Below, piece after piece: positions 12,002 through 51,040 of a stretch of DNA of 64,000 bases. The number at the start of each line of letters is the position of its first letter. The stretch's first letter is position 1. The DNA lies in contig JAHFNS010000002.1 of assembly GCA_023267215.1 (NCBI GenBank), forward strand, positions 192,892 through 256,891, read 5' to 3'. The translations under genes and the position numbers were made by a program. The stretch comes from Candidatus Nomurabacteria bacterium. GTDB taxonomy: Bacteria > Patescibacteriota > Minisyncoccia > Phycocordibacterales > UBA9973. The notes beneath the pieces are model-generated. The model searched no databases and was not told where the DNA came from. It saw nothing but the letters and a program-made list of their open reading frames with translations.

Positions 12002-12005
12002 AATT

Positions 12006-21294: not shown

Positions 21295-21337
21295 AATTTT
21301 TCCCCTCTCCTTTATAAGGAGAGGGCTAGGGTGAGGT

Positions 21338-25769: not shown

Positions 25770-26300
25770 ATGAATAAAACAGAGATACAAAATTTAATAA
25801 AAGAACTTATAGATAAAACTACCATATCAGTAAATAAAATCTCTATTGATGAAGATAGGCCAACAACCTTAAGTGGAGATGAAAATAATACCATTTGGTT
25901 TGGAGTTGAAGTGAGTCAGCCACATTTCTTTTGGGATCGTGGTGGTGAAGCGCTTTTTGCCTTAAATCACATTGCTCGTAAAATAATTGAAAACAAAACT
26001 TCCCCTAAGCTGGGCTTAGGAGAGGGTTCTATTAAGCCTAGCTTGGGGGCACAAGGGTTAGGAATTTTAATAGACATAAATGGCTTTCAAAAAAAACGCA
26101 TTGAAAACATTCACGCGATAGCCCATATGATGGCTGAACGGGCTAGGTATTTTAAGTCAAATATAGAAATAGATCCAATGCCCGCTTTTGAACGTAGAGT
26201 AGTGCATGAATTTTTATCTAATGCTACTGATCTAAAAACTGAATCAGAGGGTGAAGGATACGCTCGTCGAGTAGTTATCAAATACACAGGGACAATTTAG
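25770..26300 (+). CDS. jag: Jag/KhpB R3H-domain RNA-binding protein
   Basis: C-terminal R3H-like ERRVVHEFLS. Conserved position after yidC. Carries an in-frame family-1 hairpin insertion (SPKLGLGEGSIKPSLGAQ). Confidence 0.75.
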   Translation: MNKTEIQNLIKELIDKTTISVNKISIDEDRPTTLSGDENNTIWFGVEVSQPHFFWDRGGEALFALNHIARKIIENKTSPKLGLGEGSIKPSLGAQGLGILIDINGFQKKRIENIHAIAHMMAERARYFKSNIEIDPMPAFERRVVHEFLSNATDLKTESEGEGYARRVVIKYTGTI

Positions 26301-26304
26301 AATT

Positions 26305-26384
26305 CACCTCATCCCCCGCCTTCTCTTTGTAAAGTAGAAGGAGCAAAAACCCTCTCCTTTATAAGGAGAGGGTAGGGTGAGGTT
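26305..26384. repeat. Composite structured element: outer stem ACCTCATCCC/GGGTGAGGT enclosing hairpin CCTTCT...AGAAGG and family-3 hairpin CCCTCTCCTTTATAAGGAGAGGG
   Basis: Seen directly in the sequence, between convergent jag and the first gene of the island. Near-identical family-3 unit at 21302-21337 and 44484-44521. Confidence 0.6.
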
Positions 26385-26386
26385 CT

Positions 26387-27697
26387 TTATTTTAATTTTA
26401 ACCCCCAAAGGTAAGAATCTTTTTTGTTTATAAAAAATAGAAAGTTTTGCCCTTCATCTAGATTGAGTCTCGTTCCATCTACTTCTTCTCCGCTTATTTG
26501 AGTTGGGTCTCCTATCAATGTCGTATTACCACTTGTGATATCAATTTTCCATATTTGATCAGAAAAAGAAACTTCCCCTTGGTACCAAGAGTCCGGATAT
26601 ATTTCATTATCTATATATTTAGGGACAGCGCAATATAGGACATCACTTAATGCACCCCAGACACATTTTTCCGACAGAGTTTTAACTCCAAGTGCAATTG
26701 GTTCTCTTGTTTCAGTGTCAAAAATATTTAAAGATAAATTATTATCACTATATAGAACTAATTTACCGTCTGGGCTTGTAAGTGTTGTTAATCCATTTAT
26801 TTCACCTAAAACTTTATTGAGATCTTTTTTATTTGGATTGATAGCATACATAAATCCTCTGACATTTCCAGAAGGTTTGGTAGTGACTGTAATTAAATTC
26901 TTATTAGTCCAAGAAGATAGCCATTCAGTAAATGGAGAATCAAAAATTTGAATTTTTGTACTGCTTTGTAAATCAAAAGTTACTCCAACCCCATTGTCCC
27001 CTATATTAAATAAATAAAATATTTTTGAAGAATCAGAAGAGACACTCATGTCAGAAATATTTTCTGGCAAAAAAGAGCCTTTTACTTCATTGTTTCCTAT
27101 AGAATCTGCCCCCAAGTATTCTTTTTGTAGCATACCTACATAAGTTTCTATTGTTTTATTATCATCTTTCAAGTAACGCATGATAACAGAATCACCCTTA
27201 TTTCCAAAATATGCTTCATGTACTTTTGGCACTACGGTATTTGAAAATTTTCTCTCGTCTATTTTATCAGCAAAGGTTTGATAGATATTTCCATTTGATT
27301 TGTTTACATACCTCAAAGCAGGAGCGAATTCTGTGGGAGGGATAGCAGAGGAGGCCTTACTTTCTCCTGCTGGAGAAGGCAAGGCCTCTTCTGCTTTAAA
27401 TCTCTCTTTCATAAATACTCCATATCCTGCCACAGGGAAACTAGAAATCTTTTTAAATTTACCATATGAAGCACTATTATCTCCTGCCCCTACATATCCA
27501 GAGACATCTGAAGGAGGTGTCGGATTTGGTGTTGTGGTTTTACTTTTTCCGAATGGTAAGAAGTTTGCAAAAAAGTTTGTGCCAGTTACTGTGCCCCCAT
27601 TTTGATCTTTAGGTTGGAAAAAATAGAGAAAACCAAAAACACCAACTATGATGACTACAAGGATTATTATAAATAAAATGATGTTTCTTTTTGACAT
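26387..27697 (-). CDS. Secreted/membrane-anchored hypothetical protein (beta-rich; last gene of the T4SS-like operon)
   Basis: N-terminal TM/signal anchor (IILFIIILVVIIVGVFGFLYFF). Contains an in-frame GC-rich hairpin insertion (ALLSPAGEGKASSA...). Confidence 0.45.
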   Translation of the reverse strand: MSKRNIILFIIILVVIIVGVFGFLYFFQPKDQNGGTVTGTNFFANFLPFGKSKTTTPNPTPPSDVSGYVGAGDNSASYGKFKKISSFPVAGYGVFMKERFKAEEALPSPAGESKASSAIPPTEFAPALRYVNKSNGNIYQTFADKIDERKFSNTVVPKVHEAYFGNKGDSVIMRYLKDDNKTIETYVGMLQKEYLGADSIGNNEVKGSFLPENISDMSVSSDSSKIFYLFNIGDNGVGVTFDLQSSTKIQIFDSPFTEWLSSWTNKNLITVTTKPSGNVRGFMYAINPNKKDLNKVLGEINGLTTLTSPDGKLVLYSDNNLSLNIFDTETREPIALGVKTLSEKCVWGALSDVLYCAVPKYIDNEIYPDSWYQGEVSFSDQIWKIDITSGNTTLIGDPTQISGEEVDGTRLNLDEGQNFLFFINKKDSYLWGLKLK

Positions 27698-27704
27698 AAA
27701 ATTT

Positions 27705-29036
27705 TTAAGGATATCTATAATATTTTATTCTAGATTTAAGTTTATCTGTTAATGGTCTTATTTGTGTAGGACTATTTGTATTTTGAGTGTCTAATACTTG
27801 TCCATCTTTTACATAAATCATTGTGTGCCCATCTGGTTCGCCATTTTCATTCGCTTTCCATCCCAACAAATCACCTGTATTTATTTTTGAATAATCAAAA
27901 GTTTTTCCATCTATTTTTGTAGTATTACCAGTTGAAAATATTTCAGCACTATTATTCCCCGGGCTTCCCAACCCAGCACATACATATACTTGAGAGACAA
28001 ATGAAGAACAATCAACATAAATAGTTTTACTATCTGTAGTGTTTCTTTTTTCTTTACTATATTCTGTTTGTGGTATGAATAGTTTTCCAATTGGCAAGAT
28101 AGCTTCTTTTCCACCTGTTGCATCGCAAGTGATGCCAAAATCATTTTTTAATATTGTTTTATCTATTGGTTTAAAAGGCAAAGATGATTCACCCCCGAGA
28201 CTTGTGATGGTTATATTAGCCGTTGGCATTTTTAAACATACATTGAGTAATGCCGGATTTAGAGTATTTAAAATGGCATAGGTGCCTAAGGTTATTACAA
28301 GACCCAATATAGCATGTGTAATTCTTTCCTTTCCCGCTTCTTTTGAGGAAATGAGCTCACTGGTCATATATTCCAATCCACCTATTACTATCATCACCAT
28401 AGCGAGGACTGCTGATATACCAATGATTAACTTAACCATTATGTTTAAATAATTTCCGAAAGGACAAGGATTGGTAGTCTCATTATATTGAGTATCGATT
28501 GATTCTAGCCCTGGTAAAGGAGCGAGTGGGGTGTATACAGTCTCTGTGGGGGTTATACAGGTTGTTTTATCAGCACTTGGTATTTCTGGTGATGTACACT
28601 TAAGTTGGGTTATTGGAGCTGGTGTTTGTGATGTAGGTGTTGGTGTGGAGGGAGTTGTTGGAGTAGCTGTATTAGTAGCACCCCATTTATTCACTGTGAC
28701 ATCTACCCATTTTTTTATTGAGTGATCTTTAAAATCCGTACAAGACATTGAGAAGTTTGTTGTTTCATAAAGAGAAGGAGTACTACTTCCCGAACTAGTA
28801 TAATTTCCAAAATCAGCATTTCCTGTATTTGATGTGGTTGTTATATTACAAAAAGTATAACCAGATATTGTCCATGTTATGTTTGTTTTATCACCAGATT
28901 TTATAGTTGAAGGTTCAGCTGTAATAGATGCAGAGAAAGTATTGTCTGCGAAGGTTTGCTGAAACGGAATAAAAAAGCTAAATAAAAATATTGTTAGATA
29001 TGAGAGGGCTATTATTTTTTTAAAAATATTTTTCAT
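27705..29036 (-). CDS. Membrane-anchored cell-wall hydrolase with C-terminal NlpC/P60 domain (functional analogue of VirB1/PrgK in Gram-positive T4SS)
   Basis: Signal peptide, secreted N-domain, Pro/Thr-rich linker (TPTTPSTPTPTSQTPAPI), internal TM segment. C-terminal NlpC/P60 catalytic pattern (CSSFVSQVY...GDLLGW...H.MIYV). Confidence 0.6.
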   Translation of the reverse strand: MKNIFKKIIALSYLTIFLFSFFIPFQQTFADNTFSASITAEPSTIKSGDKTNITWTISGYTFCNITTTSNTGNADFGNYTSSGSSTPSLYETTNFSMSCTDFKDHSIKKWVDVTVNKWGATNTATPTTPSTPTPTSQTPAPITQLKCTSPEIPSADKTTCITPTETVYTPLAPLPGLESIDTQYNETTNPCPFGNYLNIMVKLIIGISAVLAMVMIVIGGLEYMTSELISSKEAGKERITHAILGLVITLGTYAILNTLNPALLNVCLKMPTANITITSLGGESSLPFKPIDKTILKNDFGITCDATGGKEAILPIGKLFIPQTEYSKEKRNTTDSKTIYVDCSSFVSQVYVCAGLGSPGNNSAEIFSTGNTTKIDGKTFDYSKINTGDLLGWKANENGEPDGHTMIYVKDGQVLDTQNTNSPTQIRPLTDKLKSRIKYYRYP

Positions 29037-29037
29037 A

Positions 29038-30027
29038 TTAAAAATTTACTTGTATTTGTTTTGTTATACTTTGAAAAAGTGTATCAGTGTTTTCAACCAT
29101 AAGTTTAATTATAGAACTTCCAGATTGCCCCGCTTCTGGCTTGATAGCTAATATATTTTTAATATCTGGTGTTTGTATTTTGTTTCCATTCAAAAACCAA
29201 CTAAAAACAAGGCTACTTGAATTTATTTCTTGTGGTGAAAAGAAATATGGTTCGGCGACAAGAATTTTTCCATCTCTACTTATAGTGTATCCATCATTCA
29301 AACTATTTTCCCATTTTACCCCAAGTTTTGGATCATCCTCATAAAAAAGTATTTTTGGTTCTGACGTTTTTAAAATTATTCTTTTAGAAGTGTTGGTGCC
29401 TCCTCCAATGTCTGATACTGCTACCTCGACAGTGTTATCTTTATCTAAATAACTATTTTGAAAAATGAAATAATTTTTTCCCCAACCAGAAGAATCAAGT
29501 TGACTGTTGCCATCTTTTTTCCAAACATAAGATAGATTGTTTGTATTTACTTTATTGCCTTGATTGACTAGGTTTGGAATGGCCACTACTTTGAATTTTC
29601 CTTGACTAGGAGCCAGAGCTTTTCCTTTATAAAAAGGCGGGGTATAAGAATCATAAGCTTCCCACAGCAGATCCATATCCGCTATTGTTAGGGTCATTTT
29701 TTTTGAAATACTTTGTCCATCGACAGTATCTATTGTGGCAGATAAATCAGTAGTTGACCCCAAGCCTTCTGTTCTGAAAGAGAAAGATTTTTTACCGATT
29801 GCCTCAATCATTTTTTGACCATTAATAAACCAAGAAATATTAGCCTTATCGAGGTTGACCACATGACTACTTAATACTGCGTTTGTGTTTTGATTTGGTC
29901 CAGGGTATTCTGGTGAGATATTTAAAATAACGTCAGTATTACGTATTTGTGCATTAACAAAAAATCCAAAAAAAGTGGCTAGTACTATAAACAGAATTAT
30001 TAAACTTTTAAAATATTTCTTCTGCAT
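29038..30027 (-). CDS. Secreted hypothetical protein
   Basis: Signal peptide (LIILFIVLATFFGFFVNAQ). Beta-rich. Confidence 0.4.
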   Translation of the reverse strand: MQKKYFKSLIILFIVLATFFGFFVNAQIRNTDVILNISPEYPGPNQNTNAVLSSHVVNLDKANISWFINGQKMIEAIGKKSFSFRTEGLGSTTDLSATIDTVDGQSISKKMTLTIADMDLLWEAYDSYTPPFYKGKALAPSQGKFKVVAIPNLVNQGNKVNTNNLSYVWKKDGNSQLDSSGWGKNYFIFQNSYLDKDNTVEVAVSDIGGGTNTSKRIILKTSEPKILFYEDDPKLGVKWENSLNDGYTISRDGKILVAEPYFFSPQEINSSSLVFSWFLNGNKIQTPDIKNILAIKPEAGQSGSSIIKLMVENTDTLFQSITKQIQVNF

Positions 30028-30067
30028 CTTATCTATTATATATCAGCTAGAACCTAGAAACTAGAAC

Positions 30068-31918
30068 CTAACTTTTTTCTTCTTCTTTCGATTTTTCCAA
30101 ATCCTCCTTGGCTTTTTTGATAGATAAAATTTGAGACGGATCGGAAGTTATGATTTGATCTTCAGTGTAAGAAGAGATGACCTTGATTGCAACGTGTTTT
30201 AGTCCAGCAAAGAATATTCCTTCACCTACTCCGGATTCTAAAAGTAAATATTTTTCTTCATCAGTCAAATTAAATGTTTTTTGTAAAATATCTATGGTGG
30301 TTGGAGATTGCTTTAAGAGTAGTTGAATAGAAGAGTTGGTGATGATAGGGATACCATAGGGAGATTTCATAAAATCAGCTGCGTCTTGGGTGATAGTGGA
30401 AAGTCCTAAATAATATTTTCTTCCTCGCTTGGCGATAGAATAAAGGAATGAAGCAGTATCTTCAGATTTCATCATCCACCAAGCTTCATCAACAACCAGA
30501 AGACGTTTCTTTAAATTTTTTCGGATAGTTATCCAAATATAATGCATTACAATATACATTGCCACGGGTTTTAATTCATCTTCCATGTCACGAACCGAAA
30601 ACACTACAAACTTTTTATTTATATCTACATTGGAAGGCCTGTTAAGAAAAGTAGACCAAGAGCCCTTGGTATATTTGACCAATCTCTGAATGACGGAGTC
30701 ACTTCCCTCCATTCCACCTAACACCATTTCGAAATCTGAAAGAAGAGGCGGTTCTATGTTTGAAAAATCTGAATCAGGAGTAATATCTTTCATTGCATAG
30801 GTTTCAGATATTGCACGATCCACCATAGAATCTTCTTCTGGAGTTAGTCCACCCAACATCAATCTGAAAAGTCCAACTAGATTTATAATATTTGAACGAA
30901 GGACATCTTCAGCAGATTCATCTTCACGTGGGATAGGTAGATCAAAGGGGTTGATGTGATGATCGGAAGAAAGTGAAATATTGAAATATCTTCCTCCCAC
31001 AGCTTCAGCTAAATATTCATATTCCCTTTCTGGGTCTATGACAATAATATCTATATCAAACATTAAAGACCGAATAATTTCCAGTTTGGTGGCATAACTT
31101 TTTCCTGAACCAGATTTTGCGAATGTCACAGAATTATAATTTTCCAAAGAAAATCTATCAAAGATAACCAAAGAAGAATTGTGTCTATTTACTCCATAAA
31201 GTATTCCCATTTCAGAAGTAAGATCAAAAGAAATAAATGGGAAAATACTTGAAAGGGGCTCCGAATTTAATTTTTGGTGAATACTTAAAAGGTCGTTGCC
31301 GATAGGCATTACGCTTTTAAAACCTTCTTCTTGCTGAAAAAGAGCTGGTTTAATATAGATTAATTTTGATTCGAGAATTGATTTTATTTCATTTTCAACT
31401 TTATAAAGTTCCATCTCATTGTCAGCATAGATGGTAATATAAATGCTTACATCAAACATTTTTTGTTGCGCTTGAATCAAACTGTCACGAAGTCCTTCCA
31501 AATCTTGATAAGCAGTATCGAGCATTGGATCACGCACCATTCCCTTTCTTTCTCGCACATTTATCTGGCTTTGTACTTCGGCGACTTTTTTTTGAAATTG
31601 TCTTAAGGCAAGAGATGTATCTACTGGATGAATAAAAATTGAAACATCAAAAACTTTATCCAAATTGATTACAGGAGAAAACCAATTATCGGAAAGAAAT
31701 CTAGGATAGGAAATAATGAAAAAAGTACGAGCAATTTTATCACCCAAATTTATAGATTTTGATTCGATCTTTAAGGCAGATGGAGCAATAATATCTTGAA
31801 GTTCTAGTTTAGCCGATTCATATATTTCTTCAGGTAATACTGGAAGAACCGAAGCATTTACTCCTTGTATTTTTTCTTCTTTTTTGTTTTTTCCAAGTAA
31901 TTTATCAAAAATTGACAT
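30068..31918 (-). CDS. VirB4/TrbE/CagE-family type IV secretion ATPase (ATPase domain)
   Basis: Walker A FAKSGSGKSYATK. Walker B-like LLVVDEAWWMM (the DEAW of VirB4s). C-terminal conserved region. Confidence 0.8.
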   Translation of the reverse strand: MSIFDKLLGKNKKEEKIQGVNASVLPVLPEEIYESAKLELQDIIAPSALKIESKSINLGDKIARTFFIISYPRFLSDNWFSPVINLDKVFDVSIFIHPVDTSLALRQFQKKVAEVQSQINVRERKGMVRDPMLDTAYQDLEGLRDSLIQAQQKMFDVSIYITIYADNEMELYKVENEIKSILESKLIYIKPALFQQEEGFKSVMPIGNDLLSIHQKLNSEPLSSIFPFISFDLTSEMGILYGVNRHNSSLVIFDRFSLENYNSVTFAKSGSGKSYATKLEIIRSLMFDIDIIVIDPEREYEYLAEAVGGRYFNISLSSDHHINPFDLPIPREDESAEDVLRSNIINLVGLFRLMLGGLTPEEDSMVDRAISETYAMKDITPDSDFSNIEPPLLSDFEMVLGGMEGSDSVIQRLVKYTKGSWSTFLNRPSNVDINKKFVVFSVRDMEDELKPVAMYIVMHYIWITIRKNLKKRLLVVDEAWWMMKSEDTASFLYSIAKRGRKYYLGLSTITQDAADFMKSPYGIPIITNSSIQLLLKQSPTTIDILQKTFNLTDEEKYLLLESGVGEGIFFAGLKHVAIKVISSYTEDQIITSDPSQILSIKKAKEDLEKSKEEEKS

Positions 31919-31932
31919 ATATTTTTTAGAAT

Positions 31933-32574
31933 TTAATTTTCCAATTCTATTTTCCCCTCCAATTCTCCTGGATTAAATACTTTATAAAATACTTCCACCA
32001 CTTCTTCTGTTCCTAGTTGGACTGATTTTATTCCACAACGTGAAAGCCCTTGTTCTATAACATTTACTCTTTCTTCCAATTGGGATCTTTTTTCTTCGAA
32101 ATCTAGTTGATCTTTAAGTTGCTCATCTTTTTTACTTTTCTTTGAAAATAAATTTGAAAATATTCCAGAATTTGGTTTTAAATTTATATGCGTGTAAGGC
32201 ACAATCACAAAAAAGTTTTTGGTCATAATACTTACAGATTCAGTAAAATTTTTAATAAATTCTATGTATTCTTTTGTTTGTAATTTAAGCAATGGTTCGT
32301 TTTGTACTTTCATTCTATTTTCTAATAACAAAAGATAGGGTCTGATGTCGAGTTTTCTTGATTGAATTGATATTTGAACTGAAAAATCAAGAGTATTTAG
32401 AAAATTTTGAAACTGCATAATAGTAGCCTTTTGTTCGTCATCAGATTTTAGAGAAAGATTAATGGAATTAGCTAATATAATAGCCCGAAGGTCTCCATCT
32501 TTTAAAACAACAATACCATCACGGATTTCCTTGATTGGTACGAATTCTTGAGTTGCTTTTGCATTTAATGCCAT
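31933..32574 (-). CDS. VirB4 N-terminal domain encoded as a separate ORF (split VirB4)
   Basis: PIKEIRDGIVVLKDGDLRAII pattern typical of the VirB4/TrbE N-terminus. Lies 15 nt upstream of the ATPase ORF in a different frame. 213+616 aa is about canonical VirB4 length. Confidence 0.55.
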   Translation of the reverse strand: MALNAKATQEFVPIKEIRDGIVVLKDGDLRAIILANSINLSLKSDDEQKATIMQFQNFLNTLDFSVQISIQSRKLDIRPYLLLLENRMKVQNEPLLKLQTKEYIEFIKNFTESVSIMTKNFFVIVPYTHINLKPNSGIFSNLFSKKSKKDEQLKDQLDFEEKRSQLEERVNVIEQGLSRCGIKSVQLGTEEVVEVFYKVFNPGELEGKIELEN

Positions 32575-32576
32575 AA

Positions 32577-32999
32577 TTATTTTTTCAAATCTAGAACGTC
32601 TAGGCTCCAGGCTAAATCTCGTAATTTATTTCCACTTAATCTTTGCCCTCTTACTTCTCCTAAACCCTCCCTAAAAGAGAGGACGTTCCCTCCCTTGGGG
32701 GAAGCGGGAGCTCCGATTTTCATATGTTTTTTCCAGATATAAAGTTTATTTTGAAAAGAAAATTTTACTCCTGCTTCTATCATATTAATAAATGGCTTAC
32801 CATTTGGATGATAGAAAGTTAAGGCTATAGATAATCCAGCTATGGCTAAAATAGGTATTGCTCCTAGCCAAAGACCCAATAATTTATATAAGGTGTAACA
32901 CAATCCTGCTCCTCCCACTAAGTAGACGAATTCCTTAAAAGTGAAAGGACCAAAAATTTTGTCTTCTATCTCCAAAAATTGTGGAACTTTAAACTGCAT
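32577..32999 (-). CDS. VirB3-like small membrane protein
   Basis: 140 aa with two TM helices, immediately upstream of VirB4 as in VirB3/PrgI. Contains an in-frame G-rich hairpin insertion. Confidence 0.5.
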   Translation of the reverse strand: MQFKVPQFLEIEDKIFGPFTFKEFVYLVGGAGLCYTLYKLLGLWLGAIPILAIAGLSIALTFYHPNGKPFINMIEAGVKFSFQNKLYIWKKHMKIGAPASPKGGNVLSFREGLGEVRGQRLSGNKLRDLAWSLDVLDLKK

Positions 33000-33038
33000 A
33001 ATTTAATTATAAATCAGAAACAATCAATTACCTAGTAC

Positions 33039-33653
33039 TTACTCTGGTGTTTCTCTATATGGATCTACTTTTGGTACTCCAATCTTTTTAATTGATGAAT
33101 TGTTTTCTTTCGATAGGTTACCAATAGAATGATTTGTCTCAATTGTTGGAGACTGGACAGCTCCTCTCAATTTTTGTTCTAAAATTGAGGCTGTATCAAA
33201 AGGAACCCTTGGGGAATTAAACCCCTCCTGTTGTCTCTCCTTGTCAGGGGAGGTTCTCATTATTTCTCCCCCTGACAAGGGGGATACAGGGGGTTTCTCT
33301 TCTTTTGGTTCCGATCCCTTTTTTCTTTCTATAATTTTTACTAATTCCTCGCGAATTCTGTTAAAAACCTTTTCATTCATTTCGTTGACCAACACGTCTA
33401 TTTGAGCTTTTGGTAAAAGCATTCTTTTTTCTAACTCCTTCGGATAGTCTTCTGTGTCCAAAAGTCCACAGAGCAAGAGTTCTGTCTCTATTTCTAAATC
33501 TTCTAATTGCTCATAACTGTATCCTTTTTCTGCTCGCATATCTAAAATTATCTTTTTCCAATCAATAGCATCAATAGCTTGTCTACTTTCTTCTGAAAGT
33601 GAAGTTCTTGCTTTATCTATTTTTATTTTTAATAAATCTACGGTGTTTTCCAT
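33039..33653 (-). CDS. Acidic hypothetical protein, paralogue of the adjacent ORF
   Basis: DWKKIILDMRAEKGYSYEQLEDLEIETELLL aligns with DWIKITEEIAEKYSLDEDELNDFQLETLLLL of 33662-34177. Contains GC-rich hairpin insertions. Confidence 0.45.
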   Translation of the reverse strand: MENTVDLLKIKIDKARTSLSEESRQAIDAIDWKKIILDMRAEKGYSYEQLEDLEIETELLLCGLLDTEDYPKELEKRMLLPKAQIDVLVNEMNEKVFNRIREELVKIIERKKGSEPKEEKPPVSPLSGGEIMRTSPDKERQQEGFNSPRVPFDTASILEQKLRGAVQSPTIETNHSIGNLSKENNSSIKKIGVPKVDPYRETPE

Positions 33654-33661
33654 ATATTTTT

Positions 33662-34177
33662 TTAAAACCCTCTTCCGACCTCTCCCTTATCAAGGTGAGG
33701 AGATGTGGTGTCCCCCCTGACAAGGGGGTTATAGGGGGTTGTATTAATCATATCACTTTCTTTTTCATTTCTTTTTTCCATAAAAACAGAATAATCTCCA
33801 CCGGAAACAATAAAATCAAGGGTTTGTTTCCAATCTAATTTTTTATTTTGGATATTTTTTTTAACATTTTCTGTTATAAGTTTATTTAGAGGGTTAAATA
33901 TTTTTTGGAAAGATTCTTTTGCAATGTTTTCTGCTTCCTCTTTAGTAGTTTCAACTTGATTTTCGATATTAATTGCATAAAATTCTGGATCTGTGGACCC
34001 TATTAGAAGCAATAAAGTTTCTAACTGAAAATCATTTAGTTCGTCCTCATCTAAGGAATATTTTTCTGCTATTTCTTCTGTTATTTTGATCCAATCAAAA
34101 GAATTAATGACTTCCTGCATTTCTTTTGGTAATTCCACCATCTCTTCTTTAATTGTTTGTTGTAATTTTTCTGTCAT
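33662..34177 (-). CDS. Acidic hypothetical protein, paralogue of 33039-33653
   Basis: See paralogue alignment. Contains hairpin insertion (GDTTSPHLDKGEVGRGF). Confidence 0.45.
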   Translation of the reverse strand: MTEKLQQTIKEEMVELPKEMQEVINSFDWIKITEEIAEKYSLDEDELNDFQLETLLLLIGSTDPEFYAINIENQVETTKEEAENIAKESFQKIFNPLNKLITENVKKNIQNKKLDWKQTLDFIVSGGDYSVFMEKRNEKESDMINTTPYNPLVRGDTTSPHLDKGEVGRGF

Positions 34178-34188
34178 AAATTTATTAA

Positions 34189-37100: not shown

Positions 37101-37287
37101 AACCTATTCCTTTTTCTGGAGTAGACAATTCCAGTTTTTCTCCAGTTTTTAATTTTAAATCCAAATTATTTGGATCTGAGGTTATTTGTGCTCTAACTTT
37201 ATTTACTTTCAAACCAGAAGAAAAAGGTGCTATTAAAATAGCTAGCATTATTATTCCCACTATTCCTTTTTTCCAATATTGTTTCAT
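34189..37287 (-). CDS. Large polytopic membrane protein with long coiled-coil and His-rich C-terminus (candidate VirB6/TrbL-like channel component)
   Basis: Signal peptide and ~230-aa exposed domain, then about 8 TM helices, then ~450 aa of charged alpha-helical sequence ending HGGGDSHAKH. Architecture and position match VirB6-like proteins of Gram-positive conjugation systems. No motif-level proof. Confidence 0.45.
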   Translation of the reverse strand: MKQYWKKGIVGIIMLAILIAPFSSGLKVNKVRAQITSDPNNLDLKLKTGEKLELSTPEKGIGYASAIFDIKATNLKLVYDGETSGYKVNTNIIDITAGEKDGGGSYSEGKSFGKDTVSSSSEKTIRICYGGNTTPDGKPCDSYESNTLKENNDYKLKITFDNYYPETGYSVIFNKIITETKNDPSVVYYWTFRTGDKTNNTSGTTTGDVKNYNQATDNDFGCSLIPMKLGGCVLQLFFILWQASAWVARLAGEFLDFFVYYATNSSSYTNTFVEQAWAGVRDIANIFFILALLFIAIKTVLGLNVTDNKKLIGAVVVVALFINFSLFTTKLVIDGSNILAKVFYNNISSVDEKGVNTEKNNVGGQKSISVGLVDKFNPQGVIMATYSDATLGIGYAIFVAILLIAITLYMAYVFFSIALLFVARVVSLWISMIFSPFAFASFTVPFKIPGFGHEEWWDDLSKNAVMAPIFAFLLYIIILFAGFLTDIARYADNQNLSGSANIMQHLMSIIIPFIILMALLNKAKKLTIEYAGEMGKTIVSGVKTIGGIAAGAAIGTTAAIGQGTLGHLGKGIFESKKLADWETNTDKGLGAWGKRFVGKNLRTASGAASTSSFDLRKGVGGVALKAASGLTGLNLGAQSKFLMKESGGYEADLKRRDEKRKKRAEGLKIKEGEPEKQHLNQVQEEHQKVSLENEKEIHEIEKEITAAEGKVKYLKDIAIASKGTPEGEANNDAYLAAGQKVKELKDKRSAIKSGGMLDENGNDGTGEFRTHNGNITKKAWEDANKEAEEAGKILVETGMVKSEAEKANAAAVTEKVAAIDELNAATAARIDAEAKANSKLTIGDPAVVAKTLEDAKKAEENAKNRMSVATNNVDTTLKTLENSNKKLEKAKEKISIAEKANIAKAYADTHKGFGNSQNEYEDKILPEAEHEVKHVNDRRTHGYANNIENQFAWPWNEAARRKSAHEIRMGVKAESHGSSKGSHLVTETVAASLAEKFVGGGKDHSSSHAPAAEKHDSGGKDAHGGGDSHAKH

Positions 37288-37312
37288 CTTTATTTCGTAA
37301 TTTATTTCTCAA

Positions 37313-37924
37313 TTAAAACCCAATTTTTTTCTTTGGTTTATTATCTTGCATAATTAGTTGTTTTAATACATCGAATACTCTTCTAAATTTAATATCATAT
37401 TTTTTCTCCATTTCTTCTATTTTTTGTCTCAATTTTATATTTGTGGCTAGTAATTCTCTTATTTTTGTGAAAGTTCTTATTATCTGAATATTTACTAGGA
37501 TTGCTCGTTCACTATTTAAAACACTAGACAGCATAGCTACTCCTTGTTCTGTAAATACATAAGGTAAATATTTTATATGTTGTCCACGTCCATTTTTTAA
37601 GGTGCCAGATTGGTACCTTAGACTTGAGGTTTCAAATTGTGACCTCAAATTATTGTTCAAGATCATAGATTGTGATTTTAGGAATTTTAATTCTTCTTTA
37701 TTAAGTTGAAACATAAAGTCCGTGGGGAATCTTTTGAGATTTCTTTTTACGGCTCGGTTTAAAGATTTTGTTTCAACACCATAAAGTTCTGCTAAATCTC
37801 GATCTAACATAACTTTTTTCTTTCTTATTAAAAGTATTTTACTAACAACTTTTTCCATTGGAAGAAGAACTAACTCAGTTGTTTTAATAGAATTTTTATT
37901 TAATTTTATATTTTTCTTTTGCAT
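37313..37924 (-). CDS. ORF6N-domain (KilA-N-like / phage antirepressor-like) protein
   Basis: VMLDRDLAELYGVETKSLNRAVKRNLKRFPTDFMFQL is the signature of the ORF6N domain. Confidence 0.65.
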   Translation of the reverse strand: MQKKNIKLNKNSIKTTELVLLPMEKVVSKILLIRKKKVMLDRDLAELYGVETKSLNRAVKRNLKRFPTDFMFQLNKEELKFLKSQSMILNNNLRSQFETSSLRYQSGTLKNGRGQHIKYLPYVFTEQGVAMLSSVLNSERAILVNIQIIRTFTKIRELLATNIKLRQKIEEMEKKYDIKFRRVFDVLKQLIMQDNKPKKKIGF

Positions 37925-37973
37925 TTTATTTTTTGTATTTTTTTTCTAGAACCTAGAAACTAACACCTAGCCC

Positions 37974-40283
37974 CTAATTCTTTTTGAAATAATACTCATA
38001 ATCCGAAGCTTCTTTGAACGTTGTTGTCACATTTCTGACGTCAACTATGGTGTTGTCGTAATACTCATACACTTTTAACGTATTCCCCGAAAGTTGAAGT
38101 TGATAAGCAGCAATGTCTGGTTTGCTTACGCGTATTTCTCTGCCGTTTTCATTTACATAACCAAACATTCTAGCGAGTTGGTCTGACAAATACCAAGCGA
38201 AAGATTGCAGATCAGAACCATCTGTATAACCATATTTTTTAGCAAATTCTACATCAGCGACAATTTGTCTAGCAAAAACTGTTTCGATGCCTTCTTGATA
38301 GCGAACAATGGCATCACTTGGTGGAGTAGCTGTCTGTCCTAATTTAAGAGGTGTTGTATCTATTATTTTTTTATTATTGTTATTTCCATTACTTCCGGTT
38401 CCATTGTTATAGTTGCCATTGTTGTAATTCCCATTGTTATAACTATTATTACTTCTCCAATTTGAACTATTCCAAGTGCCAGTATTTGTTCCACCTCCTA
38501 TTCCATTTGTTCCTTTATTACTAGTCCATGTTCCAGAACCTGTCGCGCTCGTCCAAACACCTCCTCCATTTCCTGTTCCAGTCCAAGTAGCGCTTCCTGT
38601 TCCACCTACACCTGAAGTACTTATCCATGTTCCAGAATCTGTTCCACTATTCCAAGTGCCAGTAGTTCCTGTGTTTGTACCAGTATTTGTACCGTCATTA
38701 TTATAATTTGTGTTTTTTATACAAGTAGGTGGATTATTTGCTCCATTCATACAAATCTTTATATTTGTATCACATTTTGGATAATTAGTTGCTCCATTTA
38801 CACAAATGTTATCAGGAATATTATCACAAGCAGGATAATTAGTTGATTTATTTATACAAGTATTGTTGTTATTATTATCACAAGTAGGTGGATTATTTGC
38901 TCCATTCATACAAATCTTTATATTTGTATCACATTTTGGATAATTAGTTGCTCCATTTACACAAATGTTATCAGGAATATTATCACAAGCAGGATAATTA
39001 GTTGCATTATTTTCACAAGTTGTTGTCGGAGGGGTATAAATACAAGTATTAGTAGAAGAATTTAAAACATAGGGAAGTTTACAAACAGGATTTTTTATTT
39101 CGTTGCCTGTTTCACCACTTCCGCTATTAGTACCGCTACTACTAGCGCTTGTTGTAAAATAAAAAATGTCGCCAGTATAAGTTGCTTCGTTTGCTGTACC
39201 CGCATTATTTTTTACCACTGCTCTAAATTGATATGTTGTGTTGGGTGTTAATCCTGTCAAATTGAAATTTATGTTTCCAAAGAGGTTGGCATAATTTCCG
39301 AGAGAGTTTTTTTGTTCACTACTCTTATTGCCATTCTTAGCCACGATCCATGGCGAGGCGAACTCGCTTTTTTTGTAGACAAAATAAGTTGTTACATCTG
39401 TATTAGTGATTGTTTTAGCTAGATTATTTTTTGGAGAACAATATGTTCCATTTAATATGGCAGAAGTTGATTTTATATTTGCTTCCTTTTTTGTTTCCAC
39501 TGTTGTGTTGTAACAATTAGTATGAAAACTTTTAACAATACTACTTCCACCGTAAGCGATATTATCTTTATTTGAAATTATGGCGCAATAATAATAAGTC
39601 GTGTTTGGAGCTAGGCCAGTTATCTCTTGGGAAAAAGATTGTGAAGCTGTCGGACCTAAAAATTTATCTCCTGTTGAAATCATATTTGAACCATAAACAT
39701 CATTACAGAAAATTGGAGGATTATTTTTGTTTGCTTTTGTGTATCTGAAATATGCAGTAATTGGAAGAGTGGGCTTTGAAACTAAATCTCCTCCTGTACC
39801 GTTGAGTGTGGCAGTATTTTGAGTGACATTGAGAGCCTCTCCTGTGTAAACAAAAAGACTTGATTTTGTTGTATTGGCGTTGGCGCTACTACTAGCACTA
39901 TCTTTTATATAACAAGCCTTAGCTACATTTGCATACGGATCTCTAAAAGTATTATTGTTGCAATTTATGCTGTCTGTGATATTGGTTCTATAATAAAATT
40001 TACCATAAACACCATAAGCCACATCTTTTATTCCAGTAAAATTACAAACCTGATTTTCATTTACACAAAATGTATACCCATTTGGCCCACTACTTGTAGT
40101 ATTTCCAGTTCCTCCCCCACCTCCACCAGAACCGGTGTCAGTACAACTTTGTCCGGTTTCAGTACTATATAAACTACCTTGATCACAACCAGCTGGAGCT
40201 AAATTCGCTCGTGAAATAAATGGCAAAATAAAAATTGCTGAAAATAGTGTTAAAATTATTATTTTTGTGATATTTTTTTGCAT
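37974..40283 (-). CDS. Large secreted Cys-patterned surface protein with Asn/Gly/Thr-rich low-complexity region and an internal perfect tandem duplication
   Basis: Signal peptide. Repeated CDNIPDNICVNGATNYPKCDTNIKICMNGANNPPTC module. G/T/N/S-rich tract. 769 aa. Confidence 0.6.
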   Translation of the reverse strand: MQKNITKIIILTLFSAIFILPFISRANLAPAGCDQGSLYSTETGQSCTDTGSGGGGGGTGNTTSSGPNGYTFCVNENQVCNFTGIKDVAYGVYGKFYYRTNITDSINCNNNTFRDPYANVAKACYIKDSASSSANANTTKSSLFVYTGEALNVTQNTATLNGTGGDLVSKPTLPITAYFRYTKANKNNPPIFCNDVYGSNMISTGDKFLGPTASQSFSQEITGLAPNTTYYYCAIISNKDNIAYGGSSIVKSFHTNCYNTTVETKKEANIKSTSAILNGTYCSPKNNLAKTITNTDVTTYFVYKKSEFASPWIVAKNGNKSSEQKNSLGNYANLFGNINFNLTGLTPNTTYQFRAVVKNNAGTANEATYTGDIFYFTTSASSSGTNSGSGETGNEIKNPVCKLPYVLNSSTNTCIYTPPTTTCENNATNYPACDNIPDNICVNGATNYPKCDTNIKICMNGANNPPTCDNNNNNTCINKSTNYPACDNIPDNICVNGATNYPKCDTNIKICMNGANNPPTCIKNTNYNNDGTNTGTNTGTTGTWNSGTDSGTWISTSGVGGTGSATWTGTGNGGGVWTSATGSGTWTSNKGTNGIGGGTNTGTWNSSNWRSNNSYNNGNYNNGNYNNGTGSNGNNNNKKIIDTTPLKLGQTATPPSDAIVRYQEGIETVFARQIVADVEFAKKYGYTDGSDLQSFAWYLSDQLARMFGYVNENGREIRVSKPDIAAYQLQLSGNTLKVYEYYDNTIVDVRNVTTTFKEASDYEYYFKKN
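38721..39004 (-). repeat. Perfect in-frame tandem duplication (two identical 125-bp blocks with a 159-bp period) within the surface-protein gene
   Basis: 38721-38845 is identical to 38880-39004. Encodes the repeated CDNIPDNICVNGATNYPKCDTNIKICMNGANNPPTC. Confidence 0.85.
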
Positions 40284-40321
40284 TTAATTTTTCTTTTATC
40301 TAGTACCTAGCAGCTAATTAC

Positions 40322-43285
40322 TTAATATATTCCAATCGTTTTTTCAAATAGCCCACCATAGTCTTTTGAATTTCCAAGTGGCATATGGGCTGAAGTACTA
40401 GGGGCACTTTGGTCATCGGGTTGATAATTGTAAATCAAACCATCTAGAGGCAATCTTTCAGCTCCGTCATAAATATTGTCAGGACCTGGTGGGTAAACTG
40501 CAGTGTAATGAACAAAACTCAAAAATCCTGGACCATATTTGTCGTACTGATTTTCGGCAGGCATTTTATAGCAACCAGTAGTGTCTTTTTCAGTACATTT
40601 TTTATTATAACCCCATGGATCTGGTAAGGGAGCTCCTTTATCGAAATTATTATAATCATAAAGAATTGGAAAAGGATAAGTCATTCTTGCAACAGAATTA
40701 ACATTGTAATTATTCCAATCTTCTGTTGGTTGTTTTACGCCACTACCAGCTGATGGGAAGTTTTTTTCACTAGTTGAGACATTATCTAAATTTTGTAAAA
40801 ATGCTTCACAGCCATATGGTCCCTTTAAAAGATTATTGTAGATACGATTTTTCTTAGCAATAATTTGTTCTACTAAATCACTAGCACTGGCTATGTCATC
40901 TCCATTCACCATACTTGCAGACAATCTTCCAAATGCATAAATTTGAGTTTTTAACTCATTTTCATAATCATCGTTACTAATCTGATTGGTATCAAGCTGA
41001 TTATTCAAATTATCGACAGCATCTTTTATATCTCCCAAAGTACCTACAATACTTTTCATTGAAATGATTTTATCATTATTGTCTTTAATCATCTGATTGT
41101 AACCAGGTAACTGATCGAAATCATTAGCAGCTTCTTTGGTAATCGAAGGTAGTCTGTCTGGGCTAGAAAAATATGTTTTGTTCATAATGGCAACATATCT
41201 ATTTAATACACTATTCAAAACATAAGATACTCCTTCACTGGTTGTCATATTCACATGTACAGGATCAGTTGATGCATATGCATCATATGGAGCTTGTGGT
41301 CTAAAACCAGTAAATTCATAAAATCTGTCAGTGTAATAACCTCTAATACTTCTAGAAATATCTTTTGCACTAACGTCACCTGTTAATGCTCCAAAGAGAG
41401 AACTTAAGGCTGGTCCAACATAAGGAACAAAATTGAGACCCACACCAACGACACCGTTCACAACTCCAGTTGCTTCATTTGATGAAGTTTTTGCTTGTCC
41501 TATTGAAATGGAATTCAATGTATCCCTAGAATCATTTTCCCAACCTGGGTGTGGTCCTGGTATACAATAATCCAATTGATAAATGGCGGGTATAAGTCCA
41601 TATGCATTAGAGATTTCTTTTCCAGTTCCTGGACCTATACAGTCTGGATATTTTCCACTCCAACCAGTTGGGCAAACAGCTTTTGGATTAAGAGTAGCAT
41701 CAAAAGAAATGCCACGAGTACTTATTTTTATTACTGGCTCACTACCCTTACAATTAGGATATTTTCCACTCCAACCAGTTGGGCAAACTTTAAGGTTGTA
41801 GTCTTTTCCATCTGTCGTAGAGTAGAGTTCTTTATTTTGCAAAGCGAGTTTGTCTGAATATGTTCTCTGTTCATCTATCAATGCTTGAGTAAGGTCGGTG
41901 CGAATATTGAAATCAGGATTAGCTTGTAACCATGAACTTGTAAGTTGTGATGGTGTATAATCTTTTTCTGTTTGAGTTTTGTATGGATCAGTCGTAGCTC
42001 CACTAAAGACCAAAGCGCCATCAATCCCTTGATTTCCGATATTAGCAAAACCTTTTTCAAATATATTAGTAGAGAATTGATTTAGTGTGGCATCTAGCAT
42101 AGCCGCAACAGCATCGTTTAAATCTTCTACGTTTAGAAGAGAATTATTTTGATATTTGGTCACCTCTGTCGCATAGTCAGCTATCATCTTTCCCGGGGTG
42201 ACATATTCCCAGCTTCCTCCTTCTGCTATACAAGGGTCGCCTTGGCTGTTAGTAGCTTCTAGGGCTTTTGTCTTTTGTGTTTGAGTCATACTAGAATCAA
42301 CACTGCAACGATAATCTCCCAAAAATCCATTTGCTGCTTGAATAGCATCTCGAGTATCTTTAGCTGTAGATTGTGATGTTTCATCTAATCTTTTTTGTAT
42401 TTCATTATCAAACATTATTTTAGCGCCAATAGGATTGTTGGCAGGTATTTGAGTCAATGCTGTCCAAGCATCCCAACCACCCATACTAAAATTACTTTGA
42501 AATTTATCAGCAGAAGCTTCTGGATTTGTTTCTTGAATAAGTTTATTTAAAGAATATTGTGCATTTTGCGAGAATTTAGTTTTATAAGCTAAAGCTTGAT
42601 TCCTCAACCAATCTTTGCCAAATGGACTATCTTGTATTTCTATACCAAATTGTAAAATTTCATTTTTCGCTATGTCGTTAAAAAATTTTCCTGGATTTTG
42701 TAAAAAAGAAGGTGAACCATCAAAACCACTATTGATCCATTTAACGGTACTTACCGTTAATTTTTGCAAGAACATTTTTGCGATTAGTCGCCCGACACTT
42801 GCAATGCAACTAGAATCCTCATTTATTTTTTGTGTCGTCTTGTTAAGTTTTTGTTGACCTGAGTCTATTTTTTGAAGCAGTCTATTTGTTTCTGCGGTAC
42901 CTGGATTTGAGACAGATTTGATTGTTCCAGAAGTTACTTTTAAATCTAAATTTGTTGTAGCAGCATCAGCATGGTCTTGTTCAGAATCACTGAGAGATGA
43001 TGTAGCGCTCGTAGAATCCATCCAGTCATTCAAACTACCTTCATCAATTGCACCCCCTGTTTCACCGCTAAATAAACCCGTGATTCCATTAAATAAATTT
43101 TTTATTACACCACCATTATTTTTACATTGTGGTAATCTAGCTATAGCAGGAATGAGTCCGGTTGCATATCCTGAAATATTATATTGCGCCTCAGCTTTTT
43201 TGGAAACGAAAGAAAGAGGCATCAATATTGTGCTTACTATTAGTACGAATGAAATTATTGATTTTTGGATTTGTTTTTTTTGCAT
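40322..43285 (-). CDS. Large secreted surface protein with repeated CPTGWSGKYP(N/D)C modules
   Basis: Signal peptide (LIVSTILMPLSFVSKKAEA). 987 aa. Two copies of the CPTGWSGKYP.C motif. Confidence 0.55.
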   Translation of the reverse strand: MQKKQIQKSIISFVLIVSTILMPLSFVSKKAEAQYNISGYATGLIPAIARLPQCKNNGGVIKNLFNGITGLFSGETGGAIDEGSLNDWMDSTSATSSLSDSEQDHADAATTNLDLKVTSGTIKSVSNPGTAETNRLLQKIDSGQQKLNKTTQKINEDSSCIASVGRLIAKMFLQKLTVSTVKWINSGFDGSPSFLQNPGKFFNDIAKNEILQFGIEIQDSPFGKDWLRNQALAYKTKFSQNAQYSLNKLIQETNPEASADKFQSNFSMGGWDAWTALTQIPANNPIGAKIMFDNEIQKRLDETSQSTAKDTRDAIQAANGFLGDYRCSVDSSMTQTQKTKALEATNSQGDPCIAEGGSWEYVTPGKMIADYATEVTKYQNNSLLNVEDLNDAVAAMLDATLNQFSTNIFEKGFANIGNQGIDGALVFSGATTDPYKTQTEKDYTPSQLTSSWLQANPDFNIRTDLTQALIDEQRTYSDKLALQNKELYSTTDGKDYNLKVCPTGWSGKYPNCKGSEPVIKISTRGISFDATLNPKAVCPTGWSGKYPDCIGPGTGKEISNAYGLIPAIYQLDYCIPGPHPGWENDSRDTLNSISIGQAKTSSNEATGVVNGVVGVGLNFVPYVGPALSSLFGALTGDVSAKDISRSIRGYYTDRFYEFTGFRPQAPYDAYASTDPVHVNMTTSEGVSYVLNSVLNRYVAIMNKTYFSSPDRLPSITKEAANDFDQLPGYNQMIKDNNDKIISMKSIVGTLGDIKDAVDNLNNQLDTNQISNDDYENELKTQIYAFGRLSASMVNGDDIASASDLVEQIIAKKNRIYNNLLKGPYGCEAFLQNLDNVSTSEKNFPSAGSGVKQPTEDWNNYNVNSVARMTYPFPILYDYNNFDKGAPLPDPWGYNKKCTEKDTTGCYKMPAENQYDKYGPGFLSFVHYTAVYPPGPDNIYDGAERLPLDGLIYNYQPDDQSAPSTSAHMPLGNSKDYGGLFEKTIGIY

Positions 43286-43332
43286 TTTGCTAATGCCTAG
43301 CGCCTAAAGCCCAACAACTACCTTAAATTATA

Positions 43333-44277
43333 TCATTGTTTTAACAAAAAAGTCTCTAAATCTGCCACTGCTTTTATCAAATCATCGCTATATTTTTGAT
43401 ATTGAGAAAGTCCAGATAATCCGATAATCGGATCGCTTACAATTTTACCCATATTGAGAATGCTTATGCCAGTGTTGTTGGCACCATTAGCTATTTTCAA
43501 ATGATATAGAGTAAGACTTGGAGGAACATAGAGTTCCATTACTTTTTGAGCGAAAAGTTGATAAGCATTAGCTATTTTTGATAATTTATTAAATTGATCA
43601 ATCCCACTTATCCCCCCATCTTGAGAATTTGTTGCTACTCCATCACTGACAATGCTTAATTCATCTCCTATACCTAAAGATTGATAGCTTTTAAATAAAT
43701 TTTTCATTTCCACATAATATTTTTGTTTTAAGACAAGATTGTCAACACTATTTATTTTTACATCTGTCTCTGTATAGCGATCTACTAAATCAGGAGTTAC
43801 TATTTTTTGCCCCAAGGCATTAGAAAAATTATTGATAGTATTTTTATCAATTTGCCCAGATGATTTCATGGCTGTGTAATTGCTGAAAAACTCGCGAGCA
43901 AACTTTTCTGTTTCTGTTAATTTTGTTTCATTTACACTTCCCTCTATTTTTAACTCTTTTTTCTTATTTTCTATATAAGTTGCATCTGGAGTGTTATTAA
44001 AAGTTACTTTTTTGTGAGGATCTGTACCCCAGAGAGCTTCTTCCCAATCAGGGACGCCGTCACCATCTGTGTCATTTTGTAGTAAATCAGTAAAAGTGGA
44101 ATTTCCTACCACTAGAGCCTTATTATTTTTGTTGCCGTTAATAGAAAAATTTTCTCCTGAAGAAGACATGAAGAAAATTACAAAAATTATTATCACCAAA
44201 ATGATAATGGTACTCGTGATCAATGCAAATTTTTTACTAGGTAAGTATTTTTTATATTTTTCTCTATTAAAATTCAT
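43333..44277 (-). CDS. Membrane-anchored hypothetical protein with thrombospondin-type-3-like calcium-binding motif
   Basis: N-terminal TM. DTDGDGVPDWEE matches the DxDxDGxxDxxE TSP3 Ca-binding loop. Confidence 0.4.
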   Translation of the reverse strand: MNFNREKYKKYLPSKKFALITSTIIILVIIIFVIFFMSSSGENFSINGNKNNKALVVGNSTFTDLLQNDTDGDGVPDWEEALWGTDPHKKVTFNNTPDATYIENKKKELKIEGSVNETKLTETEKFAREFFSNYTAMKSSGQIDKNTINNFSNALGQKIVTPDLVDRYTETDVKINSVDNLVLKQKYYVEMKNLFKSYQSLGIGDELSIVSDGVATNSQDGGISGIDQFNKLSKIANAYQLFAQKVMELYVPPSLTLYHLKIANGANNTGISILNMGKIVSDPIIGLSGLSQYQKYSDDLIKAVADLETFLLKQ

Positions 44278-51029: not shown

Positions 51030-51040
51030 AAAATTTAAAA

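Follow-up and report, generated by a model that had tools for sequence, protein, structure and literature searches.

Chromosomal type IV secretion systems (T4SSs) that lack recognisable conjugation proteins have been described between 2023 and 2025 in Patescibacteria, ultra-small bacteria that depend on a host. The saccharibacterium Southlakia epibionticum cannot grow as an epibiont without a T4SS encoded at the chromosome start by SEML1_0006-0019, a system that has pilins and is similar to those used by Gram-positive bacteria for conjugation, and in which no coupling protein or relaxase can be recognised (Wang et al. 2023, PMC10633639). The survey of Quinonero-Coronel et al. (2025, PMC12102498) found a monophyletic Patescibacteria clade of VirB4 ATPases related to MPF-FATA, with an adjacent TrsD, PrgI/VirB3, VirB6 and PF18895 pilins, relaxases in only a small minority of genomes, and dnaA, dnaN, rnpA, ksgA and rpmH enriched near virB4, especially in Paceibacteria; Nomurabacteria are mentioned by name in its preprint. 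A 2025 review (PMC12857230) describes these systems as non-canonical T4SSs that are required for epibiotic growth and possibly form pili. In a relative grown in culture, which feeds on RNA of its host, tubular structures that are possibly T4SS pili penetrate the host (bioRxiv 10.64898/2026.06.21.733656). Here a gene cluster at positions 26387-44277 of a 64-kb stretch of Candidatus Nomurabacteria DNA (the window; contig JAHFNS010000002.1) is compared with these systems. With a probability of roughly 0.85, it is a Patescibacteria chromosomal T4SS near oriC, related to MPF-FATA and working as a contact-side machine that moves macromolecules and does not serve conjugation. The locus is a correct rediscovery of a kind of system already published, to which pilin-enzyme fusions and an accessory gene set are incremental additions.

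The cluster comprises 13 co-directional open reading frames (ORFs) on the minus strand between jag and ksgA, on which independent gene calls for the source contig concur; the original prediction had counted twelve, with ORF coordinates that proved correct. In the order of transcription they encode proteins of 314, 987, 769, 203, 1032, 171, 204, 140, 213, 616, 329, 443 and 436 amino acids (aa), and the intergenic gaps of -11 to 49 nt reflect tight packing. Of the features of the Patescibacteria clade the following were found: a VirB4 with a P-loop, an adjacent TrsD, PrgI/VirB3, a VirB6-like protein, a VirB2-like pilin and a neighbourhood of oriC genes. With the T4SS of Southlakia epibionticum the cluster has in common a VirB4 of MPF-FATA ancestry, the adjacent TrsD, PrgI/VirB3, VirB6, the PF18895 pilin domain, wall hydrolase(s) encoded downstream of virB4, the absence from the cluster of relaxase and coupling protein, and the position at dnaA, rnpA and ksgA. 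The Gram-positive style attributed earlier to the locus agrees with its MPF-FATA likeness, and the role in host-cell contact that had been thought plausible is the leading published hypothesis. The architecture had also been considered undescribed; it is already contained in PMC10633639, PMC12102498 and PMC12857230, and the part that remains undescribed is the set of lineage-specific accessory proteins.

The motor ATPase is encoded in two parts, as had been predicted together with its GSGKS and DEAW motifs. The 616-aa protein matches Pfam P-loop_TraG with 83 bits as well as AAA_10 and DUF87, carries Walker A (GSGKS) at residue 270 and Walker B (DEAW) at residue 477, and aligns in the PDB with the VirB4 C-terminal domain 4ag5 (E 2.9e-38) and with TrwK (E 2.3e-7). 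It is 26% identical to PrgJ of pCF10 (E 1e-40). Residues ~44-572 pair with PrgJ 228-772, and a canonical VirB4 therefore extends ~185 residues further at the N-terminus. An FtsK/HerA-type ATPase accompanied by unrelated membrane proteins, with no T4SS at all, would account for the DUF87/HerA match of 27.6 bits. The chance of this is next to nil, since the VirB4-specific matches (4ag5, PrgJ and P-loop_TraG) already refute an ATPase of FtsK/HerA type only, a case which the original prediction had allowed for, and since PrgI, TrsD, a VirB6 fold and T4SS_pilin occur around it in the canonical order. Among the VirB4 matches listed, the 120 best cluster representatives are 88-96% identical and 583-622 aa long, so that the split holds across the lineage and does not come from a frameshift. 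The named close homologues in this list are nearly all from Nomurabacteria, Paceibacteria and Patescibacteria metagenome-assembled genomes, and a few are labelled otherwise (Bacteroidales, Burkholderiales).

The missing part of the ATPase corresponds to the 213-aa protein, encoded 14 nt upstream of virB4. It matches NCBIfam TrsD (NF041427) over its full length (14-199/201, E 8e-7) and the N-terminal regions of three VirB4 models, namely VirB4_plasma NF045975 (positions 102-256/894, E 6e-11), TIGR00929 (4-184/792) and CD1110 (2-119/752), with scores that lie under the curated whole-protein cut-offs; a precomputed TraC-like tag (PF26593) is also attached to it. A search of the TrsD profile against the PDB gave no match to the N-terminal part of VirB4. 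By the profile matches, the TrsD-like protein is the detached N-terminal ~185 residues of canonical VirB4, and TrsD plus VirB4 is a known arrangement. Just upstream, with a gap of 2 nt, lies the gene of the 140-aa protein, which had been called VirB3-like and is matched by Pfam PrgI (PF12666) with 37 bits (cut-off 27).

The 1032-aa protein, earlier regarded as a candidate VirB6-like channel, is polytopic, has the TrwI fold and is encoded near virB4. It consists of a signal or transmembrane (TM) segment, a beta-sandwich ectodomain (~43-212), a conserved helical membrane core (~222-560) and a variable coiled-coil tail (~560-970). Sequence identity to R388 TrwI/VirB6 is 8%, and relative to TrwI the N-terminal beta-sandwich ectodomain and the ~400-residue C-terminal coiled coil are extra. 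A VirB5 partner was not recognised alongside this VirB6-like protein.

The gene order also follows Gram-positive systems. The pCF10 core PrgH(VirB6)-PrgI(VirB3)-PrgJ(VirB4)-PrgK(hydrolase)-PrgL is collinear with VirB6-like, two acidic proteins, PrgI, TrsD/VirB4, the 329-aa protein, the pilin/hydrolase protein and the 436-aa protein, and TrsD with a shortened VirB4 is the arrangement of the pGO1 subclass. In contrast to pCF10 and pGO1, the locus has no coupling protein of the PcfC type, no relaxase of the PcfG type, no LPXTG adhesin of the PrgB type and no recognisable VirB8-like PrgL or PrgD, and the cluster is chromosomal and immobile. A second difference is the VirB2-type pilin domain, which Gram-positive systems normally do without (PMC12857230). 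For three components the best NCBIfam matches are to a Mycoplasma trio, the pilin-like Mbov_0395 (E 1e-3), the TM protein Mbov_0396 (E 0.07) and the VirB4 Mbov_0397 (N-terminal part, E 6e-11), all with scores far under the curated cut-offs. The mycoplasma module resides on a mobile integrative conjugative element (ICE) whose mobility is driven by a DDE transposase, whereas the module described here is fixed in the chromosome.

The 443-aa protein combines two domains in one polypeptide. A pilin had been reported as missing; T4SS_pilin (PF18895) matches residues 198-249 of this protein with 28.9 bits (cut-off 26.6), and the Mbov_0395 match mentioned above falls in the same protein. The membrane-anchored NlpC/P60 hydrolase foreseen earlier lies further on (PF00877, residues 340-432, 33.4 bits, cut-off 23), with the catalytic residues Cys343 (in DCSS, starting at 342) and His404 (in GHTM, starting at 403). 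By these family and active-site matches the domain is a predicted peptidoglycan endopeptidase and VirB1 analogue of the CD419 type. The predicted layout is a signal peptide, an Ig-like ectodomain, a Thr/Pro linker, a two-helix hairpin (~190-262) with a basic cytoplasmic loop, and the C-terminal NlpC/P60 domain. As this domain follows the second pilin helix it is predicted to be extracellular, which would place both ectodomains outside the cell. A lineage-specific hidden Markov model (HMM) detected no further pilin gene in the window. In Saccharibacteria the pilins form an array of about six small proteins, in contrast to the single pilin-type domain found here, which is flanked by the Ig-like ectodomain and the hydrolase. 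The pilin module was also compared with PrgF of pCF10, and no similarity was found.

The pilin module was followed in related genomes. Alignment of homologues of the 1032-aa protein yielded 80 species-level loci from GTDB genomes, mostly labelled Nomurabacteria, Paceibacteria or Patescibacteria, and many labelled uncultured Saccharibacteria. In 52/52 syntenic orthologues of the 443-aa gene (188-690 aa, 43-79% identity) the pilin hairpin is retained. Among 41 orthologues scanned with Pfam, T4SS_pilin was found in 39, and some relatives also match TrbC. The C-terminal enzyme in the same 41 varies: NlpC/P60 (9), VanY (6), Amidase_5 (5), YkuD (4), SLT_2 (2) and single cases of Peptidase_M15_4, Amidase_2 and SLT_4. 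The N-terminal Ig-like domains vary too, and the shortest orthologues (188-243 aa) contain little beyond the pilin module. When the pilin module alone was the query of an exhaustive HMMER search, 13,543 cluster representatives reached E <= 1e-3; the best 150 are nearly all 300-700 aa long with the module internal. Pfam matches in 95 of these 150 include the pilin in 89, NlpC/P60 in 13, VanY in 9, YkuD in 6, M15_4 in 4, SLT_2 in 4 and SLT_3 in 3, in addition to others. Pilin-enzyme fusions are not mentioned in the Patescibacteria T4SS papers cited here or in the texts covered by a full-text literature search, and a conserved pilin hairpin fused to swappable peptidoglycan enzymes appears to be undescribed.

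The frequent exchange of the enzyme chemistry is more easily explained by the varying wall of a host than by the cell's own wall. This bears on a second possibility, in which the machine is a translocator of effectors or surface proteins, the hydrolase acts only on the cell's own wall in the role of VirB1 or PrgK, the 987-aa and 769-aa proteins are adhesins or effectors, and nothing is imported. Protein export was one option offered by Wang et al. (PMC10633639). MPF-FATA systems as a rule encode a peptidoglycan hydrolase close to VirB4, as in the pCF10 order PrgJ-PrgK, and the 769-aa family carries adhesin-type modules. However, both large proteins have Sec-type signal peptides and so need no T4SS to leave the cytoplasm, and close relatives carry an endopeptidase, a carboxypeptidase, an L,D-transpeptidase fold, a transglycosylase or an amidase in the same slot, which is unexpected if the substrate is a conserved self wall. 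Export alone is a tentative alternative, at perhaps three chances in ten. A bolder extension of the host-contact reading would make the VirB2-type hairpin protein a pilus or channel subunit that displays host-matched, exchanged enzymes, an 'armed' filament or tip which drills through the host envelope while the relaxase-less T4SS imports host macromolecules such as RNA; in this complete form it is speculative and rather unlikely.

The contact-side T4SS is further characterised by its position. In the 31 loci of the 80 that have complete 10-kb flanks the order pcrA-ksgA-314-987-(769)-VirB6-(171)-204-PrgI-TrsD-VirB4-329-pilin/hydrolase-436, followed by jag-yidC-rnpA-dnaA, is identical (31/31), and the conserved set amounts to 12 co-inherited genes. 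dnaA is the fourth gene from the block, with jag, yidC and rnpA between. The median amino-acid identity is 88% for VirB4, 80% for TrsD and 61% for PrgI, compared with 83% for DnaA (two loci only), 72% for PcrA, 67% for YidC and 57% for KsgA in the flanks. The exposed proteins have medians of 37-54%, the VirB6-like and 987-aa proteins lying at ~37-40%. VirB4 is thus conserved at least as much as DnaA; the motor is under housekeeping-level constraint and the exposed parts evolve fast. Among the window's ORFs of 90 aa or more, none encodes a relaxase, a VirD4-type coupling protein or an integrase, which bears out the earlier statement on VirD4 and relaxase, and PcfC-like or PcfG-like sequences are lacking both in the window and within 10 kb on either side of the 80 related loci. 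Taken over the window and the related loci, none of the marks of a conjugative T4SS or ICE was found, whether relaxase with oriT, VirD4/TcpA coupling protein, integrase, attachment (att) site, variable presence or compositional difference. The earlier conclusion that this is not a conventional conjugative element agrees with the absence of a relaxase and a coupling protein nearby.

The original prediction had called the cluster an island, and the corresponding explanation would be the remnant of an integrated conjugative element that lost its relaxase, coupling protein and integrase. VirB4 and its partners do descend from conjugation machinery, a gene of mobile-element type (ORF6N) lies inside the cluster, and exact 24-nt repeats at 26349 and 44483 bracket it. 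The explanation is nevertheless very improbable. The position and order are the same in all 31 species, VirB4 is conserved at least as well as the flanking housekeeping genes, the GC content of the cluster (0.31-0.36) equals that of the rest of the window, and no tRNA gene or integrase is adjacent. The ORF6N gene is sporadic. The bracketing repeats were considered as att sites and rejected, because the element is a palindromic hairpin that is dispersed, a third copy lying after dnaN. Rather than an island, the cluster is a chromosomal module that stays in place next to oriC and is passed on vertically.

The repeat itself is a GC-rich palindromic element of ~45 nt with the core CCCTCTCCTTTATAAGGAGAGGG, present in three copies of the same orientation (21302-21325, 26349-26372 and 44483-44506). 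The copy behind dnaN and the one that follows the final T4SS gene form terminator-like hairpins. The ksgA copy is in frame and encodes SPLNPSPYKGEG; in ksgA orthologues the insert is absent or other GC-rich inserts occupy this site. Both acidic paralogues carry a further hairpin (CCCCCTGACAAGGGGG...) in frame (33268-33295 and 33713-33740). These in-frame palindromes are reminiscent of Rickettsia palindromic elements.

The accessory genes make up the remainder of the conserved set. Those for the 314-, 987-, 329-, 436- and 204-aa proteins are strictly co-conserved with the core, being present in 31/31 loci each, and are without a described counterpart in Patescibacteria T4SSs; no relatives of the five proteins were detected in Pfam, NCBIfam or the PDB, and they appear to be undescribed. 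The 314-aa protein (median identity 49%) contains the calcium-binding motif DTDGDG at residue 69, as stated for the TSP3-motif protein of the original prediction; the Pfam TSP3_bac score of 23.6 bits falls just below the cut-off of 25. The 987-aa protein (median identity 37%) has no counterpart in Pfam, NCBIfam, a PDB profile search or a Foldseek search of the PDB with its AlphaFold2 model (pLDDT 66.8, the C-terminal half being confident), and is a candidate lineage-specific extracellular or surface component. Its public gene call begins 21 codons downstream (966 aa) and loses the larger part of the signal peptide; the longer ORF, in which the signal peptide is complete, seems to be the right one. 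The 329-aa protein (median identity 46%) shows weak PKD/Ig matches only and has no PDB sequence match. The 436-aa protein (median identity 54%) has a conserved beta-rich ectodomain of ~310 aa and no family or PDB match, one orthologue giving a weak PD40 match. Both were considered as VirB8/PrgL analogues, for which sequence and profile searches gave no support.

The 769-aa protein is encoded in 25/31 loci. It is composed of fn3-like beta-sandwiches, a variable Cys-rich repeat, a Gly/Asn/Thr region of low complexity and a C-terminal domain (~650-769) that is conserved, a composition that would fit an adhesin-like protein. With 24 cysteines, against 12 in the 987-aa protein, it conforms to the Cys-patterned secreted proteins noted earlier. 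Its orthologues carry fn3-like domains in 30/40 cases and variable CARDB, He_PIG, TSP_3 and CBM_14 domains. A tandem duplication at 38702-39019 (159-bp unit x1.9, 92-96% identical), whose unit encodes a Cys-rich 'C-x-NGA-x-NYP-x-CD' module, is recent, and the stretch is probably a hypervariable surface region.

The two acidic proteins are paralogues, as had been proposed, with 29% BLASTP identity over 109 aa (E 4e-10). In the 204-aa protein an N-terminal domain of ~110 aa and a C-terminal DPYR motif are conserved, and the tail is disordered. The gene of the 171-aa protein is present in 23/31 loci, and a function of this protein as a chaperone or adaptor is a guess. Neither has a Pfam, NCBIfam or PDB match, and no relation of the pair to DUF5663 or to any solved fold emerged. 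The ORF6N identity of the 203-aa protein was right (Pfam ORF6N, 115 bits), and its membership in the cluster was not. The gene occurs in 3/31 loci only and at differing positions, and is therefore a passenger and no T4SS component. Here it sits between the 769-aa and VirB6-like genes and behaves like a small mobile passenger.

Sequence data do not separate protein export, import of host macromolecules and uptake of DNA. The last of these would make the cluster a machine for DNA uptake or release of the ComB/Ced-like or gonococcal type, working without a relaxase or coupling protein. ComB-type uptake systems have neither a coupling protein nor a relaxase. That both are missing nearby fits, as does the location beside the DNA-metabolism genes pcrA and dnaA, and in the class ABY1 comF, recG and radA are found at T4SS loci (PMC12102498). 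These flanking genes are the oriC neighbourhood only, however, and nothing in the conserved set was recognisable as a DNA-binding component. In the tested saccharibacterium the T4SS is essential and comEC is dispensable (PMC12857230), which argues against comEC-dependent transformation as the essential role. A function in DNA uptake or release is improbable on balance.

Several points weigh against the interpretation of the cluster as a contact-side T4SS. The essentiality data come from Southlakia epibionticum only, a member of another class, Saccharimonadia; for this lineage the high sequence constraint gives indirect support. The survey found many homologues of the coupling protein VirD4 in Patescibacteria, mostly far from virB4 (PMC12102498), and a coupling protein could sit elsewhere in this genome, of which 64 kb were covered. 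No VirB8-like protein was identified, the 329- and 436-aa proteins being without a sequence or profile match. For seven of the twelve conserved genes, roles are read from topology and conservation only.

The features of the locus are collected in Table 1. The start of the 314-aa gene overlaps the ksgA stop by 11 nt, and the sole strong minus-strand terminator-like hairpin (26373-26349) directly follows the 436-aa gene. A promoter scan gave 85 against 76.6 in the shuffled background, which is not above it.

Table 1. Genes and signals of the T4SS cluster and its immediate flanks, in window coordinates.
Feature	Position	Strand	Remarks
dnaA	22684-24054		Same side as rnpA, yidC and jag; ksgA and pcrA on the other side
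jag	25770-26300	+	Flank of cluster
Terminator-like hairpin	26349..26373	-	11-bp stem, 6 GC, T-run; terminator scan
436-aa bitopic membrane protein	26387..27697	-	Last gene; TM 6-24
443-aa decorated pilin-like protein with NlpC/P60	27705..29036	-	Pfam
329-aa bitopic or secreted protein	29038..30027	-	Beta-rich, Ig-like repeats
VirB4 ATPase, 616 aa	30068..31918	-	Pfam, PDB and PrgJ matches
TrsD-like protein, 213 aa	31933..32574	-	NCBIfam matches
PrgI/VirB3-like small membrane protein, 140 aa	32577..32999	-	Pfam PrgI
204-aa acidic cytoplasmic protein	33039..33653	-	Isoelectric point (pI) 5.1
171-aa acidic cytoplasmic protein	33662..34177	-	pI 4.5; paralogue of 204-aa protein
'Extended' VirB6-like polytopic membrane protein, 1032 aa	34189..37287	-	
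ORF6N-domain protein, 203 aa	37313..37924	-	pI 10.3; Pfam ORF6N
769-aa secreted modular protein	37974..40283	-	fn3-like, Cys-rich repeat, adhesin-like
987-aa secreted protein	40322..43285	-	Signal peptide, 12 Cys, mostly helical
314-aa bitopic membrane protein	43333..44277	-	First gene of conserved block; TM 19-37, TSP3 motif
ksgA	44267-45178	-	Flank of cluster

The rest of the window is occupied by housekeeping genes (uvrABC, polA, ruvABC, tyrS, a class A penicillin-binding protein, dnaN, dnaA, rnpA, yidC, pcrA, tRNA genes and others). Positions 10304-12866 encode a PilB/GspE-type ATPase (T2SSE, E 7e-111) followed by a 286-aa protein without a Pfam match, a pair that probably belongs to the type IV pilus machinery which Patescibacteria also need for host attachment. 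Two large ORFs of 849 and 559 aa (48480-51355 and 57033-58712) have no Pfam match; a DUF5663 protein (51041-51355) lies upstream of the 849-aa ORF on the same strand, and a LysM and M23 peptidase protein (51656-52750) is nearby. The two ORFs and their neighbours are candidates for further uncharacterised envelope proteins.

In the proposed mechanism, TrsD and VirB4 would reconstitute the motor at the cytoplasmic membrane, docked on PrgI and VirB6, and would power a channel, a pilus-like structure or both. The pilin-type hairpin protein may place the wall enzyme at the extracellular part of the machine or polymerise into that part, and the enzyme, anchored by the hairpin with both ectodomains outside, would open the peptidoglycan of the cell itself, of the host, or of both. 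The secreted and bitopic proteins of 314, 987, 769, 329 and 436 aa would build or decorate an extracellular host-contact part. The assembled machine would move macromolecules across the interface between parasite and host, as opposed to mobilising DNA for conjugation. The cargo of the essential relaxase-less T4SS of Patescibacteria, and the direction in which it travels, are a question for a group that holds a large share of bacterial diversity. For one large lineage of this group the window gives a minimal parts list of 12 co-inherited genes, in which housekeeping-level constraint on the motor contrasts with a rapid turnover of the exposed parts, and it provides a concrete lead, the fusion of a pilin-type membrane module to exchangeable cell-wall enzymes.

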